Of a stretch of DNA of 64,000 nucleotides, positions 34,347 through 42,082 are shown one piece after another. Below the pieces are notes generated by a model. The model was not told the origin of the DNA. It worked only from the letters and a program-made list of their open reading frames with translations, and made no database searches. Origin of the DNA: Candidatus Nomurabacteria bacterium (GTDB taxonomy: Bacteria > Patescibacteriota > Minisyncoccia > Phycocordibacterales > UBA9973); contig JAPLXR010000008.1 in NCBI GenBank assembly GCA_026395955.1, positions 5,179 to 69,178 of the forward strand, in the 5' to 3' direction. How positions within the stretch are numbered: the stretch's first letter is position 1; every line of letters starts with the position of its first letter. Position numbers and translations under genes: made by a program.

Positions 34347-35219
34347 TTATCTATTTTTCCACTTTCGCCAGATATACCTTAACACAAAAAAGATAACTAA
34401 TACAGACAAACCATAAAAGATTATTTTGAAGTCGAAAATAGCAGATAGTATCGCTGCAAAGAATAATTTTATATATTCGAACGGCTTACTGAGTTTACTT
34501 TTACCTTTTTCACTAGCATTTGATGCACCATTTTTTATATTATCTTTTATTGTTTGAATATTACTTTTTATTTTATCTTTAAAAGAAGTCGTTTTATTTT
34601 CTACAGATTGTCGGAAAGATTCTACTCCATCTACGACATACGCTACGGGTTTTGATATAAATGTCGGAGCATTATCTTTGATAGTATTAGCTACACTAGT
34701 TGTTTTATCATCTATTGTATTTACAAGTGAATTACTGGAATCCTTTATTGGATTGTTCGTAGTTGTATTTGTGTCAGTATTGGCTACCGTATCAATTTTC
34801 TTATTAACAGTTCTCTTACTAGTATCTGACTGATTATCTGGTAGATATACATCTACATATGTACCATTAGATGTCAGATATCGAGTACTTTCTATTTTTG
34901 CAAAAATAGTATGGTCACCGACAGTAACTTGCCATGGTAGACCAACTTGAGACACTTGACTCGATCCTGCTGTAAAGTTTCTTTTTCCTAGGAGGACATC
35001 ATTATCAAAAAATAAAACTGATCCAGAAAGCTGACGAGAGTCTGAGTTAAAAACTAAAGTATATATTTTTATATTATCACCTTCTTCAAAAGGATCTTTT
35101 GAATACCAAATATTTGAAGGAATAAAACCAGCATTTGTAGAATTTTGAGCAAAAGATATTTTATAACTAAAAGAAAAAACTAGTAGAAATACAAATATAA
35201 AAATTCGTCCTTTTTTCAT
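34347..35219 (-). CDS. secreted/bitopic beta-rich protein with C-terminal TM
   Basis: Signal peptide, N/T-rich middle, C-terminal hydrophobic helix. Confidence 0.5.
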   Translation of the reverse strand: MKKGRIFIFVFLLVFSFSYKISFAQNSTNAGFIPSNIWYSKDPFEEGDNIKIYTLVFNSDSRQLSGSVLFFDNDVLLGKRNFTAGSSQVSQVGLPWQVTVGDHTIFAKIESTRYLTSNGTYVDVYLPDNQSDTSKRTVNKKIDTVANTDTNTTTNNPIKDSSNSLVNTIDDKTTSVANTIKDNAPTFISKPVAYVVDGVESFRQSVENKTTSFKDKIKSNIQTIKDNIKNGASNASEKGKSKLSKPFEYIKLFFAAILSAIFDFKIIFYGLSVLVIFFVLRYIWRKWKNR

Positions 35220-35260: not shown

Positions 35261-35905
35261 TTAAATCCCCTCTTTTTTTAATTCTTCGAGAAGTTCGCGG
35301 GCTTTTTTAGATATTTTGTGTGGAACTTTTACATAGACTTTTATATACAAGTCACCTGGTTTTCCATCCTTGATACTTTCACCCATACCTGTCATTTTCA
35401 ACATTTGTCCGTCATGAATACCTGATGGAATTACTATTTTTATTTCTTTATGACCTGTAATAATTATTTTTCTTTCAGCACCGAGTATTGCATCAATCAT
35501 AGATATTTCTATTTCTGTTTGCATGTCTCTTCCTTTTGGGGTTCTCTTGTAACCTCGTGCACCTCCAAAAAAATCTGAGAATATATCATTTAAATCAAAT
35601 TCTACTCCGCCACCATTTTGGAAACCAGAAAAGTCGAAACCTTCAAAACCACCACCGAACCCACCTTGGTATTGTTGTCCACCACCTCCCATATTTTGAT
35701 ACCCAGAACCAAATCTGTCGTACTGAGCACGTTTCGTATCATCTGAAAGAGTTTGATAAGCTTCATTTATTTCTTTGAATTTCTTGTCGTCTCCTTTGTT
35801 TTTGTCTGGATGGTGTTGATGCGCAAGCTTACGAAAAGCTGTTTTCAGCTCGTCTTTTGAGGCACTTTTATTTACACCTAGTATTTCATAGTAATCTTTT
35901 GACAT
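35261..35905 (-). CDS. J-domain co-chaperone (DnaJ-like, lacks zinc-finger domain)
   Basis: J domain with HPD (HHPDKNKGD). G/F-rich region. Short DnaJ C-terminal-like segment ([12 protein letters not shown]). No CxxCxGxG repeats. 214 aa. Confidence 0.8.
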
Positions 35906-35918
35906 ATTTATATATTAG

Positions 35919-37910
35919 TTATTCTAAAATTTTTAGCAAGACGTCTTCGGGAACTTCTTTGATTTGAGGTTTAGATTGTTCCCCTCCTTGTTGAGGAGGG
36001 GTGGCTTTAGCTGGGGTGGTGGCTTCTGTTTTCTGCGCAATAAAATCTTTAAATTTATTCATGTCATCACTACTAGCACCTTTATCTTTTGGAAAATTAT
36101 TTGGTAAAGGATTAGTTTGACCTTTTAATGAATTTAATGAAATTGAAGGCTGAGGCTGAACAACTTTTTCTTCTTTCAATGTTTCCGAAAGAGCTTTATT
36201 TAAAATATCTTTCAAAGCATTATTTTGAGACATTGGTCTTTGAATATTTTGTATTGGTTGTTGTTGTGGAGCTGGTTTAAATACTTTTGGTTCTACTGGT
36301 GGAGTTGGAGCTTTATATACTGGTTTAAAAGTTGTTTGTGTAGGTTGTTGTACAGGAGCAGGTGGAGTAATTATTGGTGCTTTTATTTCTTTCTTTTCTT
36401 CTAGAGGTTTCGGTGCGACATATGGTAAAGGCTTGATTGTACCTTCTTTCATTTTAGCAATACAGTCTTTACAATACACAGGTCGTCCTGCTTCTGGTTT
36501 GAATGGAACCAAAGTATCTTTACCACAGATAGAACATTTAACTGGGAATTGTTCTACATCTTTATTTCCCTTTGGAGCTGTCGCGGCTGAAAGATTTAAA
36601 AACATTCCACTCCATTCACTGATTTCTTTTTCAACAATTTCTCTAGGGCGAGCATAAAGTTTTCTAGAGATATCTATAACTTCTTGTTCTGTTTGTAAGT
36701 TTCTCTTTGTAATCATCGGTGGTAATGTGCGTGCAGAAAATGGACGACTTGTTACGCCATCGATCATAAGTTTCAAATAAATTCTATAGTTTGGAAGACT
36801 TACGATATCTTGAGCCATAAATTCTGGTTCGAATTCTTTTTCTAAAAAGTCTGCATCTTCAGCACCAACACGAAATACAATCATAGTTCCGACGTTACCG
36901 AAAACAGCATCACGCACAGCTGAACCATTTGCAGAAACGAGTTGAGCAGTGTATTGGTGTGCAACCGTTAGATTTAAACGGTATTTTCGAGCTTCAGAAA
37001 GAATGTTTGCAAAAGAATCTGTTACGAAGTTTTGGAATTCGTCTACATATAAATAAAAGTCTTTACGTTGATCTTCAGCAATACGTACACGCTCCATCGC
37101 TGCGAGTTGGATTTTTGTAATAAGCATACCTCCGAGCAATGCTGAATTATCTTCACCGATACGTCCCTTCGAAACGTTCACGAGGAAAATTTTCTTCTCG
37201 TTCATAATATCAAAAAGATTGATTGTACTTTTTGATTGACCGACAACATTACGCACAATAGAACTTGAGAGAAATTGTCCGACTTTATTTTGAATAGGTG
37301 TAATAGCTTCATTACGGAATTTGTCTTGCCAAGTATCATATTCATTTACCCAAAAACCTTTTACGATAGGATCTTTGATATTATCAACAATTGTTTTTCT
37401 ATATGGTTTATCTACGAGCATACGAGTCACACCGAGGAGTGTCGTGCCAGGAGTTTCAAGCAATGCCAAAATAGCATTGTTCAAAATATATTCCATACGA
37501 GCAGACCAAACATTCGCCCAGATCTTCGTAAAGATTCCCATGAGTCCTGAAGCTACGAGATGTTTGTATTGAGGATCGACGAGTTCGAGAACATTTAACC
37601 CAATATGATAATCAGTATCAGCTGGATTGAAATATACAACGTCTTGCATTCTATGTGGAGGAATACTAGAAACAATATCTTCTACGAGTTCACCGTGAGG
37701 ATCGACAACACAAACACCTTCACCATTGATGATGTTTTGCATAACCATATTTGTCATAAAAGCAGATTTACCTGTTCCTGATTTTCCTAGAATATATACG
37801 TGCTGTCTGCGATCTTTTCTTTTAATACCAAAAAGCTGATTTTTATTTCTAAATGTTGTTTCACCTAGATATGTGATATCTTTATTTTCTGGGAATTGTA
37901 TTGGATCCAT
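35919..37910 (-). CDS. FtsK/HerA/TrwB(VirD4)-superfamily P-loop ATPase with C-terminal CxxC...CxxC zinc ribbon and Pro/Gln-rich tail
   Basis: Walker A GKSGTGKSAF. VVDPHGE (cf. TrwB/HerA DPxGE). Walker B FYLYVDEFQNF. HQ motif. Zinc ribbon VKCSICGKDTLVPFKPEAGRPVYCKDCIAK. No TM. Likely start at MDPIQ (37910); the track start is 37940. Confidence 0.75.
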   Translation of the reverse strand: MDPIQFPENKDITYLGETTFRNKNQLFGIKRKDRRQHVYILGKSGTGKSAFMTNMVMQNIINGEGVCVVDPHGELVEDIVSSIPPHRMQDVVYFNPADTDYHIGLNVLELVDPQYKHLVASGLMGIFTKIWANVWSARMEYILNNAILALLETPGTTLLGVTRMLVDKPYRKTIVDNIKDPIVKGFWVNEYDTWQDKFRNEAITPIQNKVGQFLSSSIVRNVVGQSKSTINLFDIMNEKKIFLVNVSKGRIGEDNSALLGGMLITKIQLAAMERVRIAEDQRKDFYLYVDEFQNFVTDSFANILSEARKYRLNLTVAHQYTAQLVSANGSAVRDAVFGNVGTMIVFRVGAEDADFLEKEFEPEFMAQDIVSLPNYRIYLKLMIDGVTSRPFSARTLPPMITKRNLQTEQEVIDISRKLYARPREIVEKEISEWSGMFLNLSAATAPKGNKDVEQFPVKCSICGKDTLVPFKPEAGRPVYCKDCIAKMKEGTIKPLPYVAPKPLEEKKEIKAPIITPPAPVQQPTQTTFKPVYKAPTPPVEPKVFKPAPQQQPIQNIQRPMSQNNALKDILNKALSETLKEEKVVQPQPSISLNSLKGQTNPLPNNFPKDKGASSDDMNKFKDFIAQKTEATTPAKATPPQQGGEQSKPQIKEVPEDVLLKILE
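35981..36001. repeat. GC-rich palindrome (7-bp arms) inside the ATPase gene tail
   Basis: cccctcc-ttgttga-ggagggg. Encodes PPQQGG on the minus strand. Confidence 0.65.
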
Positions 37911-38053
37911 ATATATGATTATATCAGTTATTAAAAACAAAAAAAGCTTTTTAAAGCTTTTTTTGTTAGAGAAATTGAAAGTATTTTTTCGAGCTGGTCT
38001 GGCTGACCCCCTTCCAAGGACCCGAGAAAAAATTCTTTCAGTTTCTCTTCTTG

Positions 38054-39949
38054 CTATGCTTTTGGTTCTTCACCCTCTGGCTTTACCTCCTCACCTTTGA
38101 CTTCGGTTGCTTGTTCTTCGGGTGTACCTCCGGATGGAGCCTCTGCACCTGCTTTACTCATAGCTTCACCGATCTTAGACATTTCTGTAGAAAGTTCTTC
38201 TAGAGCTTTTTGAATAGCTGGTAAGTCTGTACCATCTTTTAATCCGCGAAGTGCTGTGATTTTTGCATTCACTCCATCTTTCACTTCTGCTGGAATTTTT
38301 GCTTCATTATCTTTCAAAGCTTTTTCTGCAGAGTAAATAGTCATTTCACAAGAATTTTTTATTTCTGCTAATTCTTTTTTCTGTTTATCTTCTTCAGCAT
38401 GAAGTTCAGCATCAGCTTGCATCTTCTTTATATCTTCATCTTTCAATCCTGAACTTGCTTCGATTTTAATTGATTGAGTTTTACCTGAAGCTTTATCTTT
38501 TGCAGTGACGTTAAGAATACCATTCGCATCTACATCGAAAGAAACTTCGACTTGTGGCATACCGCGTGGTGCTGGTGGAATACCATCGAGAATAAATCTT
38601 CCGAGTGATTTGTTATCACCAGCCATTGGACGTTCACCTTGAACGATATGGATTTCTACACTTGTTTGATTGTCGGCTGCTGTAGAAAATGTCTGTGATT
38701 TAGAGGATGGAATAGTTGTATTTCTCTCAACTAATTTTGTAGCCACGCCTCCAAGTGTTTCGATACCGAGTGAAAGTGGAATAACATCGAGAAGTAAAAC
38801 GTCGCGCACATCACCTTGTAATACTCCAGCTTGCACTGCAGCACCGAGGGCGACGACTTCGTCTGGATTGATAGAAAGGTTTGGAGTTTTTCCAAAAACT
38901 TTTTTCACTTCTTCCACGATCTTTGGCATTCTTGTTTGTCCTCCGACCATTATTATTTCATTCATTTCTTCCATTTTGAAACCAGAAGCAGTCATAGCTC
39001 GCTTTGTTATCTCGATAGAACGAGTGATATATTCATCGGCAATTGATTCGAGTTGCGCACGAGTCATTTTGAGTAATAAGTGTTGTGGGCCAGCTTCTGT
39101 AGAAGTAATGAAAGGGATGTTGATTTCTGTTTCAATAGCTGTAGAAAGCTCGATTTTAGCCTTTTCAGCAGCTTCATCGAGGCGTTGTAATGCGAGCTTG
39201 TCATTGCGGACATCTACACCTGAAGTCTTCTTGTATTCTTCTGCGATCCAAGCAATAATCTTGTGATCAATATCACGGCCTCCGAGGTGACTGTCGCCAT
39301 CTGTTGATTTTACTTCGATAACATCGTCACCAATTTCAAGAACTGACACGTCGAATGTACCTCCTCCGAAGTCATACACAACGATCTTTTCATTTTTCTT
39401 TTTATTGAAACCATAAGCGAGAGCTGCGGCTGTAGGCTCGTTTATAATTCTCTTTACATCGAGTCCTGCGATCATACCTGCATCCTTTGTAGCTTTTCTT
39501 TGTGCATCATTGAAATATGCTGGAACTGTAATAACAGCCTCAGTAATTTTTTCTCCAATCTTTGCTTCCACATCAGCCTTAATTTTTCCTAAAATCATCG
39601 CAGAGATTTCTTCTGGGCGCATCCATTTGTCGCCGATCATTACTTCTACTCCTCCGTCTTTTCCTTTTTGTAATTTAAATGAAGCATTCTTCAAATCCTT
39701 TTGCACTTCTGGATCTTCAAAATTGTGACCCATAAAACGCTTGATACCGTAGACGGTATTTTCCGGATTCGTCACTGCCTGTCTTTTTGCAAGTAAACCT
39801 ACGAGACGATCTCCATTTTTTGCAACAGAAACGATACTCGGAGTCGTTCGAGCTCCTTCGATATTTTCTATAATCTTCGGCTGTCCTCCTTCGATGATTG
39901 CTACTGCACTATTTGTTGTACCCAAGTCTATTCCAATTATTTTTGACAT
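38054..39949 (-). CDS. dnaK: molecular chaperone DnaK (Hsp70)
   Basis: [21 protein letters not shown] and full-length Hsp70 architecture. Confidence 0.95.
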
Positions 39950-39987: not shown

Positions 39988-40227
39988 TTATTTGATATCT
40001 TCTTTTCTATTTTTATTATAATTGTTCCAACCTATTGAATAAAATATTATTAAAAAAGGTAAAAACAACAATAAGAAACTTTGGAAATATTGATGGCAAT
40101 TTTTACCAAAATCTATTTTATAACAATAATAAGAACCTGCACTTTTTTCAATCAAAGTAAACAGGGTGATCATAAACAACCACAATACTGCCAGCTGACT
40201 TTTTGTAATTTTATAAATATTTTTCAT
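39988..40227 (-). CDS. small membrane protein
   Basis: 79 aa, 2 TM. Confidence 0.4.
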   Translation of the reverse strand: MKNIYKITKSQLAVLWLFMITLFTLIEKSAGSYYCYKIDFGKNCHQYFQSFLLLFLPFLIIFYSIGWNNYNKNRKEDIK

Positions 40228-40242
40228 ATTTTATCTTTATAA

Positions 40243-40545
40243 TTAATTACTAATAAAAAAACTAATAATTGACCAAATTAATTGGAGAATTCCAACAAAT
40301 ACAAGTCCAAAGGTTAACCAATTCATTGCTCTAGATCTTTTATAATTACTGATAGAAAGTTGAGTATTTGATTTAATTAACTCATTGACTGAATCAGCGA
40401 TTACGGACTTTAATTGTTGGACAGATAAAGCTACATTTTGAGAAGCGAAGGCATTTGCTTTCATAGCTGTATTATCCGTAAGATGTGAATTTTCTGCTTC
40501 TTTTAAGATTCTATTTACTTTATCATTAAAATCATTTTCTTCCAT
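40243..40545 (-). CDS. tail-anchored membrane protein (ElaB/YqjD-like architecture)
   Basis: Helical N-domain plus a single C-terminal TM. 100 aa. Confidence 0.4.
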   Translation of the reverse strand: MEENDFNDKVNRILKEAENSHLTDNTAMKANAFASQNVALSVQQLKSVIADSVNELIKSNTQLSISNYKRSRAMNWLTFGLVFVGILQLIWSIISFFISN

Positions 40546-40639: not shown

Positions 40640-41146
40640 ATGTCAAGCCATACCAAGAAAATCATTAAAATACTAGGTGAAAAGAGTGCTGTGAGTGTCC
40701 AAAACCTCGTAGACGGCCCAATAAATGAAAAATACGCACTCACCCGTTCACTCAAAAACCTCCGCGAAGCGGGGCTGGTGGAGCATATTTCCAGTGGGCA
40801 AAATGATTACGCTCGCCTGACAAAAGAAGGAAAAAAGAAAATGCACAGTTTGAAGCTCGATAGCGACACAATGCTCGTGAATACTTCATGGGATGGATTC
40901 TGGAGAATTATTTTGCTCGACCTTCCCGAAGCTCGCAAAAGCGAACGCGAGAGTTTACGCTACTTATTAAAAAAGGCCGGCTTCGTGTGCCTGAAAAATT
41001 CTGCATGGATCTCCCCTTTTCCGTATGAATATCTTTTCGAAAATATTAAAAAGGATTTAGGACTCACGACAGAGATGATGATTATTGTCACTCAACACAT
41101 CGATGAAGAAACCAAAAAAGTTTTATTTGAAACTTTCGGAAAATAA
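40640..41146 (+). CDS. winged-helix transcriptional regulator, PaaX-like
   Basis: N-terminal wHTH. C-domain pattern SWDGFWRIILLDLPEARKSERESLRYLLKKAGFVCLKNSAWISP resembles the PaaX middle/C domains. The gene is about 47% GC, against ~30% for its neighbours. Confidence 0.5.
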   Translation: MSSHTKKIIKILGEKSAVSVQNLVDGPINEKYALTRSLKNLREAGLVEHISSGQNDYARLTKEGKKKMHSLKLDSDTMLVNTSWDGFWRIILLDLPEARKSERESLRYLLKKAGFVCLKNSAWISPFPYEYLFENIKKDLGLTTEMMIIVTQHIDEETKKVLFETFGK

Positions 41147-41470: not shown

Positions 41471-42082
41471 TTAAGCCTTGTAACCAAATACATTCACTCG
41501 TGCTGGGCGGAGAACTTTGTCTTTTGACTTGTATCCTTTTTGTAAAACTTGAGATATAGTATCGTCTTTTGATTGATCATCTGTCGGCACATGTTCGACT
41601 GATTGATGCAGTTCTGGATTAAATTTCTCGCCGACTTTGCCGATAGATTGCACGCCGTAGTCTTCAAAAACAGAGTTCATTTGATTATAAATATATTCTA
41701 CACCTGTGCGCCAATTTGCGTCTACTTTCTCCCACGCAGTTTTATTGGCAAAAGCCATATCAAAACTATCCATCACCGAAAGAAATTTATCCATCATTCT
41801 TTCTTGGATAATATTTTTAAAATTTGTATTTCTATCTTCTTCTTCTTTTCTATAATTCACAAAACCTGCTCGCTCTTTCTGCCAGCCGGTAAGGTATTCC
41901 TCCTTTTCTGCTTTTGCCTGTTTTAAATCAGCACGAAGTTTCTTTAAAGTTTTCTTTAAATCTTCTTCCCCATCTTCATTAAATTCAAATTCGACGACTT
42001 CACTGTCGTCTGTAACCTCATCGGGAAATTGTGCTGGGATTTCAGTATTTTGTTGTACTATTTCTTCATTTTCTTCGCTCAT
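41471..42082 (-). CDS. grpE: nucleotide exchange factor GrpE
   Basis: Acidic N-terminus, long coiled coil and GrpE C-terminal beta-domain pattern. Confidence 0.85.
   Translation of the reverse strand: MSEENEEIVQQNTEIPAQFPDEVTDDSEVVEFEFNEDGEEDLKKTLKKLRADLKQAKAEKEEYLTGWQKERAGFVNYRKEEEDRNTNFKNIIQERMMDKFLSVMDSFDMAFANKTAWEKVDANWRTGVEYIYNQMNSVFEDYGVQSIGKVGEKFNPELHQSVEHVPTDDQSKDDTISQVLQKGYKSKDKVLRPARVNVFGYKA

Follow-up and report, generated by a model that had tools for sequence, protein, structure and literature searches.

In a 64-kb stretch of the genome of a Candidatus Nomurabacteria bacterium (GenBank assembly GCA_026395955.1, contig JAPLXR010000008.1, positions 5,179 to 69,178 of the forward strand; hereafter the window), the chaperone genes dnaK and dnaJ are separated by a gene for a P-loop ATPase with a zinc ribbon. 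All coordinates given here are positions in the window, and labels such as L001–L008, L082 and L083 denote loci of relatives. Over 35.2–42.1 kb the minus strand carries, in this order, grpE, two small open reading frames (ORFs), dnaK, the ATPase, a J-domain protein (J-protein), a 290-residue protein and penicillin-binding protein 2 (PBP2) (Table 1). An earlier note on this DNA had suggested that the ATPase and the J-protein may be parts of one module to which DnaK would be recruited. Comparison with relatives points instead to a lineage-specific variant of gene order, in which ordinary chaperone genes sit beside a phylum-wide ATPase that in most relatives accompanies a membrane-anchored DUF8128 protein, and we consider this explanation probable.

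Table 1. Genes and sequence features between grpE and the gene downstream of dnaJ, in window coordinates.
Feature	Position	Strand	Description	Basis
grpE	41471–42082	−	203 aa	Pfam GrpE, 7.5e-39
Winged-helix/PaaX_M-type regulator	40640–41146	+	divergent, between grpE and dnaK	Pfam PaaX_M, 6e-20
Two small hydrophobic ORFs	39988–40545	−	100 and 79 aa; directly upstream of dnaK	ORF list
dnaK	38054–39949	−	631 aa	HSP70, E 4.8e-241; NF001413, 913.7 bits (cut-off 648)
Long imperfect stem-loop, dnaK 3′ region	37968–38048	−		RNA fold
A/T-rich hairpin and T-run, terminator-like	37933–37967	−		sequence, fold
Extended −10 element TGATATAAT	37918–37926	−	7 nt before the ATPase ATG	
ATPase	35919–37910	−	663 aa, P-loop, from the ATG at 37910	
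ATPase motor region	36591–37910	−	aa 1–440; RecA-like nucleotide-binding domain with helical insertion; Walker A aa 42–49, Walker B aa 290–291	
CxxC-x17-CxxC zinc ribbon	36447–36554	−	aa 453–488	zf_Tbcl_2 (PF23477), 2.4e-13; TIGR04272, 4.9e-15, above its cut-off of 36
Pro/Gln-rich low-complexity tail	35919–36446	−	aa 489–663 and stop codon	sequence
J-protein (reduced dnaJ)	35261–35905	−	214 aa	Pfam, NCBIfam, alignment
290-aa protein, no known family	34347–35219	−	hydrophobic N- and C-termini	

The ATPase, dnaK, the J-protein and grpE lie on the minus strand where the earlier note had placed them, with grpE 1.5 kb upstream of dnaK (1521 nt from the end of the one to the start of the other), and the zinc ribbon and all motifs that it had read in the ATPase are present: Walker A GKSGTGKS (residues 42–49), DPHGE (70–74), Walker B DEFQNF (290–295) and HQ (318–319), all of which relatives share with little or no variation. 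The longest ORF for the ATPase (35919–37940) opens at a TTG and would encode 673 residues; this start was rejected, since a conserved TGnTATAAT element falls inside the extension. Because the promoter element lies there and homologues begin at the ATG of 37910, the latter is taken as the true start. Pfam matches, which pass the domain-level cut-offs, comprise TrwB_AAD_bind (2.8e-13, residues 32–349), T4SS-DNA_transf (9.8e-10), DUF87 (7.3e-9) and TraG-D_C (5.4e-8), and there is a weak match to CedD, an archaeal DNA import ATPase. All curated TraD/VirD4 models of NCBIfam stay far below their cut-offs on this protein (best TIGR03743 with 52 bits versus 366, and NF045973 with 46.5 versus 250). A 19-residue Kyte–Doolittle scan found no hydrophobic segment above threshold in the ATPase; the protein itself thus has no transmembrane (TM) segment, in agreement with the earlier note, although its description as soluble needs to be qualified by the membrane-anchored partner or fusion seen in relatives (see below).

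A first AlphaFold2 (AF2) model, made from 38 close homologues, was discarded at a predicted local distance difference test score (pLDDT) of 58; the model used for the fold search was built on 82 diverse sequences and reached a pLDDT of 93.2 and a predicted template modelling score (pTM) of 0.83. Foldseek against the PDB placed TrwB at the top (E 2.7e-13), followed by Cag-beta, HerA, DotL and VirB4, with alignments spanning ~405–445 columns on TrwB chains of 411–427 residues, and a helical block at residues ~113–225 lies between the core strands of the model in the manner of the all-alpha domain of type IV coupling proteins (T4CPs). The sequence search returned TrwB as the sole solved relative (E 6.7e-5). 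The core fold is shared with HerA, FtsK, VirB4 and EccC, and DptH is also close. Fold and motifs together identify the ATPase as a predicted ring-type RecA-fold motor of the VirB4/VirD4/HerA branch; the earlier assignment to the VirD4/VirB4/HerA family has thus held up, with profile matches to Pfam and the modelled fold in agreement. It is nevertheless not called a T4CP here, because it lacks a membrane anchor, scores below the TraD/VirD4 thresholds and shows no linkage to a type IV secretion system (T4SS). A role as part of a defence system was considered and rejected, PADLOC having returned only generic P-loop similarity of the HerA/mad8 kind.

Downstream of the motor, the cysteines of the zinc ribbon are invariant in 38 close homologues, and the otherwise variable Pro/Gln-rich tail ends in the motif KEVPEDVL(R/K/L/Q)K(I/V)LE-COOH (35922–35960, minus strand). 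This C-terminal motif, in short KEVPEDVLxKILE, is conserved in the window, L001–L010 and L014, and the ATPases of other lineages terminate in motifs of the type ...PGExVKFD or L(R/K)xxLKExL; such endings are probably lineage-specific docking peptides. L009 and L010 carry the motif, yet dnaK and dnaJ are absent from their flanks of 4–8 kb; L014 carries it on a contig too short to show the dnaK/dnaJ context. The tail resembles a docking platform that varies between lineages, with a motif that would predate the dnaK linkage or be independent of it.

The J-protein starts 13 nt after the stop codon of the ATPase (counted to its ATG) and, in agreement with the earlier description, comprises 214 residues without a zinc finger; a further domain, C-terminal domain (CTD) II, turned out to be missing as well. 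It contains a DnaJ domain (PF00226, 1.7e-25, residues 4–63) with an HPD at residues 32–34 and a visible glycine/phenylalanine-rich (G/F) region. The zinc-finger family DnaJ_CXXCXGXG (PF00684) has no match in the J-protein, the match to DnaJ_C is confined to profile positions 2–76 of 152, and the score against TIGR02349 is 169 versus a cut-off of 377. Aligned with the syntenic full-length DnaJ proteins of relatives (357–372 residues), the J-protein is collinear save for two clean in-frame deletions, one of which removes the entire zinc-finger domain (~70 residues) and the other CTD II (~70 residues), so that the J-domain, the G/F region, CTD I and the C-terminal helix are kept. Within one clade, DnaJ has shrunk stepwise from 357–372 to 285–288 and further to 214–218 residues: CTD II alone is gone from L001:8983–9840 (285 residues) and L083:9009–9875 (288 residues), and both the zinc finger and CTD II are gone from the proteins of the window (214 residues), L003:13572–14228 (218 residues) and L082:9115–9762 (215 residues). 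This truncation does not go along with adjacency to an ATPase of the window's type (ATPase A), as the dnaJ of L003 is doubly truncated but follows a different paralogue (ATPase B) and that of L001 is adjacent yet has kept the zinc finger. A specialised additional J-protein of the DjlA, HscB or CbpA type was rejected because DnaJ equivalogs match best and syntenic DnaJ aligns collinearly; no second J-domain was found in the window. Judged by domain content and alignment, the J-protein is a reduced orthologue of the housekeeping DnaJ and no dedicated adaptor.

The wider context of the ATPase was surveyed with one genome per GTDB species, which gave 599 confirmed relatives. The best 80 of these, with ATPases 50–72% identical to that of the window, were analysed with at most 8 kb of flank per side; DnaK, DnaJ and GrpE were located by tblastn, neighbouring ORFs were clustered, and upstream counts are limited to the 73 species loci whose upstream flank measures 2.5 kb or more. 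Seven of these 73 loci (L002–L008) have a dnaK gene no more than 4 kb upstream of the ATPase. Neighbour joining of 96 motor domains separates two paralogue groups, an A type mostly with zinc ribbon and a B type of ~500 residues without it. The dnaK-linked A-type ATPases (window and L001–L008) form one clade that is nested among DUF8128-linked lineages, and the dnaK linkage, as far as can be read from the neighbour-joining tree, arose once. 

Within this clade and in the closest relatives of the window, the order dnaK...ATPase...dnaJ has been kept in 11 genomes (window, L001–L008, L082 and L083), although with differing content. The commoner arrangement is dnaK, zero to three small ORFs, ATPase A, a Cys-rich gene (c4, ~585 residues, zero to two copies), ATPase B and dnaJ, and dnaJ is full length (357–372 residues) in L002 and L004–L008. 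The Cys-rich gene and/or the second ATPase lie between ATPase A and dnaJ in L002–L008, that is, in seven of the 11 genomes; only in the window, L082 (ATPase 82% identical), L001 (71%) and L083 (70%) does ATPase A stand directly before dnaJ. Since c4 and ATPase B are both missing from the window and one or both are present in L002–L008, the 13-nt junction is a recent result of gene loss. The c4 protein (~560–600 residues, for example L003:10267–12024) contains many CxxC pairs, has no Pfam or NCBIfam match and occurs in one to four tandem copies beside A- and B-type ATPases of Paceibacteria-type genomes; it was found in L002, L003, L005–L007, L010, L011, L019–L021, L068 and L078.

Across the larger set of loci, the ATPase keeps different company. 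A DUF8128 protein (c2; PF26449, ~420–580 residues with an N-terminal hydrophobic helix) is encoded no more than three genes upstream in 56 of the 73 loci and directly adjoins the ATPase in 54 of 80 neighbourhoods (79 species loci plus L001), a sigma-like gene is found upstream in 39 of the 73, and, where the flank measures 5 kb or more, secDF in half of the loci (30 of 60). The recurrent order is secD-secF-c3-c2-ATPase, where c3 denotes a protein with sigma70_r4 and HARE-HTH domains, and secA follows further upstream in several loci; examples from among L009–L081 and L084 are L047:2736–9700 and L084:5756–13546. The outgroup loci L034 and L035 have a canonical, adjacent dnaK-dnaJ pair at 4–6 kb from c3-c2-ATPase. 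The DUF8128 protein aligns to the N-terminal 375 residues of a long-form ATPase (E 5e-54), because of which the long forms (800–1130 residues) are interpreted as DUF8128::ATPase fusions, and at an independent, rearranged locus the sigma-like gene stands directly upstream of such a fusion with secDF nearby on the opposite strand. Gene pairs that are separate in some genomes and fused in others are a classic signature of physical partners. In the tree, the ATPase of the window groups with the DUF8128-adjacent orthologues of the zinc-ribbon clade. The DUF8128 profile has no relative in the PDB, and neither the DUF8128 protein nor c4 is matched in the NCBIfam and Pfam versions that were scanned. 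Among the neighbourhood clusters of the 80 relatives there is no VirB4-like gene, nor does a NurA-like nuclease, Sir2 or another HerA partner stand beside the ATPase in these 80 neighbourhoods.

The family as such is neither small nor new. A protein identical to the ATPase of the window is on record in a Candidatus Nomurabacteria metagenome-assembled genome, and family names given at NCBI, among them "CxxC-x17-CxxC domain-containing protein", already cover hundreds of relatives with 60–80% identity. All 8,000 scored candidates of the homologue search were significant; the best 120 are 61–82% identical over their full length, and those with a named source come nearly all from Patescibacteria. 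Among representatives at 50% identity, which were searched exhaustively, 23,894 match at E ≤ 1e-3 and 6,342 at E ≤ 1e-30. In 55 of the 137 best representatives with a recognisable Walker A, the motor begins only at residues ~350–450, after an N-terminal extension that often opens with a hydrophobic helix. A survey of T4SSs in Patescibacteria published in 2025 counted 5,713 VirD4-type homologues in 2,918 genomes, only 148 of them near virB4, reported that the t4cp homologue of S. epibionticum is non-essential for epibiotic growth, and considered an exaptation of such t4cp homologues possible (PMC12102498). The family of the window ATPase most likely corresponds to the "T4CP homologues" of this survey, whose sections consulted here contain no description of a placement between dnaK and dnaJ, of a DUF8128 partner or fusion, or of the secDF/sigma-like cluster (PMC12102498). 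Beyond it, literature searches on CxxC-x17-CxxC, PF26449, DUF8128 and a link between VirD4 and secD in the candidate phyla radiation (CPR) yielded nothing relevant. The ATPase is, in sum, a member of a known and annotated family without characterised function, and its placement beside dnaK is lineage-specific. An origin from a mobile element or prophage was rejected, as every neighbour is a housekeeping gene and the family spans the phylum with a largely vertical distribution.

Between dnaK and the ATPase, a spacer of 143 nt harbours several transcription signals. The fold of 37925–38053 has a minimum free energy of −42.4 kcal/mol (z = −5.4 versus shuffles), and the long stem-loop behind dnaK is partly conserved in L001 and L083; Rfam gave no hit at gathering score for this structure and merely sub-threshold, hairpin-like matches. 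The A/T-rich hairpin with T-run that follows has a counterpart at the same position in L001, with different stem bases, and falls below the GC-pair threshold of a simple terminator scan. Such simple promoter and terminator scans, which showed no excess over shuffled sequence in this AT-rich DNA, were set aside. The extended −10 element consists of TATAAT at 37918–37923 and TG at 37925–37926, and TGnTATAAT occurs without variation 7–10 nt before the ATG in the window, L082, L001 and L083. The suggestion of the earlier note that the ATPase may have a promoter of its own is strengthened by this conservation in the four closest genomes and by the hairpin and T-run upstream: a predicted, conserved promoter separate from that of dnaK is supported, and its short distance from the start codon suggests that the ATPase-dnaJ mRNA is leaderless or nearly so. 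Given the hairpin and T-run after dnaK and the ATPase's own promoter, dnaJ is most likely transcribed from the latter. No obvious Shine-Dalgarno sequences precede dnaK and dnaJ.

Among the remaining genes of the region, DnaK and GrpE are canonical as judged from their profile scores, and DnaK is an ordinary Hsp70. The position of grpE relative to rpsI and dnaK is the same in L001, L082 and L083. The divergent PaaX_M-type regulator (cluster c14) also adjoins dnaK in L001–L006, L008, L082 and L083, and no CIRCE/HrcA operator was found in the window at up to three mismatches; the regulator is a candidate substitute for HrcA in the control of the chaperone genes. The small ORFs before dnaK are poorly conserved, relatives having different ones in that slot. 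In the closest relative, an IS200/IS605-type Y1 transposase gene (L082:3412–4116) has interrupted the stretch from the PaaX_M regulator to dnaK, which marks the grpE-dnaK interval as a site of ongoing rearrangement. On the other side of dnaJ, the 290-residue protein, which has no Pfam or NCBIfam match and an Asn/Thr/Ser-rich middle, sits between dnaJ and PBP2 in the window and in L001, whose homologue (L001:9848–10690, 50% identity) is likewise located 3′ of dnaJ; ORFs of 280–285 residues without Pfam match fill this slot in L082 and L083, the likeness being one of size and position only. The scanned ORFs of the window are all housekeeping genes (ribosomal proteins, RNA polymerase alpha, aminoacyl-tRNA synthetases, DnaB, MurG, FtsW, MraY, PBP2), with no T4SS gene among them, and neither tRNA, tmRNA nor other RNA families were detected in the whole 64 kb (ARAGORN; Rfam at gathering scores).

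Under a lineage-specific change of gene order, the ancestor of one family-level clade would have acquired, between its dnaK and dnaJ, a block of ATPase, Cys-rich protein and shorter ATPase paralogue. The sublineage of the window would subsequently have lost the Cys-rich gene and the second ATPase, which would have brought the remaining ATPase to within 13 nt of dnaJ, and dnaJ itself would have been trimmed by the two in-frame deletions. DnaK and DnaJ would accordingly be general chaperones whose operon was invaded and not dedicated subunits. As the most likely mechanism, the ATPase would dock at the cytoplasmic face of the membrane via DUF8128 and spend ATP on threading or extracting a polymer, while partners would be recruited by the zinc ribbon and by the disordered tail with the conserved C-terminal motif, as they are by the tails of TraD and DotL. 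Several observations weigh against this account. The order dnaK-ATPase-...-dnaJ has survived within the clade over a divergence of the ATPase to 59–71% identity despite gene gains and losses, and in all 11 genomes dnaJ directly follows a T4CP-like ATPase gene, be it of type A or B, a constancy that could reflect selection for co-expression. As to the membrane context, tblastn found no homologues of DUF8128, the sigma-like gene or secDF in the window, and the neighbourhood of Sec genes elsewhere could reflect phylogenetic inertia among housekeeping genes.

The conserved order in 11 genomes, with an ATPase gene directly before dnaJ in each, also speaks for the closest competitor, a functional pair of ATPase and DnaJ restricted to this clade, in which DnaJ would bring DnaK to the ATPase or its substrates as in a chaperone-assisted translocase, the chaperones assembling or disassembling the ring or keeping a protein substrate unfolded. 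A conserved promoter before the ATPase and no terminator before dnaJ imply co-transcription, the tails of T4CPs are known to bind adaptors or chaperones (DotL-IcmSW, TraD-TraM), and the alternative conserved context of secA and secDF likewise concerns protein handling. We nonetheless judge such a pair unlikely: its arrangement has a single origin and is missing from 66 of the 73 species loci, L002–L008 have other genes between ATPase A and dnaJ, the J-protein is orthologous to the general DnaJ with a truncation that does not track adjacency (L003, L001), and the tail motif recurs in L009 and L010, where neither dnaK nor dnaJ is found in the flanks. No fusion to a J-domain was noticed among the sequences inspected, a systematic search for fusions not having been made. 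The J-protein as a specialised adaptor tightly coupled to the ATPase is therefore not supported, and the chaperone-assisted translocase or remodelling module of the earlier note is weakened by the rarity of an upstream dnaK, which is limited to one clade, and by the usual neighbours of the ATPase (DUF8128, sigma70_r4/HARE-HTH, secD/secF and secA). A formal refutation is not reached, since close relatives do share the placement: the proposed synteny exists in the 11 close genomes, no further one of the 73 loci has dnaK within 4 kb upstream, and a canonical dnaJ directly after dnaK does occur elsewhere (L034, L035).

Two further alternatives concern the ATPase itself. As a genuine T4CP, it would serve in trans a monoderm-type T4SS encoded elsewhere and pass DNA or effectors to VirB4 and a channel; that TrwB, Cag-beta, DotL and VirB4 rank first by sequence and fold would agree with this. 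The lack of a TM anchor, scores far under every curated TraD/VirD4 cut-off of NCBIfam, the absence of T4SS genes from the scanned ORFs of the window and the neighbourhoods of the 80 relatives, and a conserved partner that is DUF8128 and no relaxase or mating-pair formation (MPF) protein make this quite unlikely. The published survey can be cited on both sides, as it counts such proteins as T4CP homologues and often finds t4cp away from virB4, but places only 148 of the 5,713 homologues near that gene (PMC12102498). Still lower stands a cytoplasmic DNA motor like HerA or FtsK, active in repair, segregation or the processing of imported DNA, with a ribbon that binds nucleic acid and with incidental gene contexts; we hold this to be very unlikely. 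In its favour are the close folds of HerA, FtsK and DptH, the DUF87 and weak CedD matches, the frequent binding of nucleic acids by zinc ribbons, and the dependence of Patescibacteria on nucleotides that they scavenge. On the other side are the 80 neighbourhoods, none of which places a NurA-like nuclease, Sir2 or another partner of HerA next to the ATPase, the conserved fusion or adjacency to a membrane-anchored protein, and a PADLOC similarity that is generic to P-loop proteins.

Beyond the gene-order explanation that we favour, the zinc-ribbon ATPase and DUF8128 might together form a membrane-docked, protein-handling motor beside Sec that is specific to Patescibacteria, would export, insert or extract proteins, and would be neither a T4SS coupling protein nor a DNA pump; in the Nomurabacteria clade, dnaJ would share the promoter of the ATPase, and DnaK and DnaJ would cooperate with the motor. 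We assign a low probability to this proposal as a whole; a protein-handling motor would explain the linkage to secA, secD and secF and, separately, that to dnaK and dnaJ. Had the module proposed for the window been real, it would have represented a new translocase driven by chaperones; comparison with relatives points instead to a lineage-specific accident of gene order, which changes little for chaperone biology. The DUF8128/Sec linkage is the better lead and offers a concrete, testable route to the role of an ATPase that, with 50–70% identity across classes, belongs to the most conserved Patescibacteria families without assigned function. The role of such "orphan T4CPs" was left open by the published survey (PMC12102498). 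The shrinkage of DnaJ from 372 via 285 to 214 residues in turn lets reduced genomes serve as a clean natural experiment on how minimal the architecture of an Hsp40 can become.

In comparison with known systems, the ATPase resembles T4CPs such as TrwB of R388, VirD4, TraD, Cag-beta and DotL in its RecA-like nucleotide-binding domain, the same layout of Walker A and B, and the helical insertion, and like TraD and DotL it has a long C-terminal extension as a possible docking platform. Unlike them, it has no N-terminal TM domain, Walker A being reached already at residue 42; in its relatives the anchor is a separate or fused DUF8128 module of ~400 residues, which is not known from classical T4CPs. 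The CxxC-x17-CxxC zinc ribbon is a further difference from T4CPs, as is the lack of linkage to virB4, relaxase or MPF genes, and identity to TrwB is ~13%. The VirB4 N-terminal domain and the HAS-barrel of HerA are likewise missing, and, in contrast to VirB4, HerA and DptH (DndH), no nuclease, Sir2 or Dnd partners stand beside the ATPase, whose profile matches lean towards the TrwB/TraD models. The J-protein shares with class A DnaJ the J-domain with HPD, the G/F region, the beta-sandwich of CTD I and the C-terminal helix, and differs by the loss of the four CXXCXGXG repeats and of CTD II. The canonical heat-shock operon is a contiguous grpE-dnaK-dnaJ, often with an HrcA/CIRCE control element; here, by comparison, the three genes are not contiguous, a divergent regulator and small ORFs splitting grpE from dnaK and the ATPase splitting dnaK from dnaJ.

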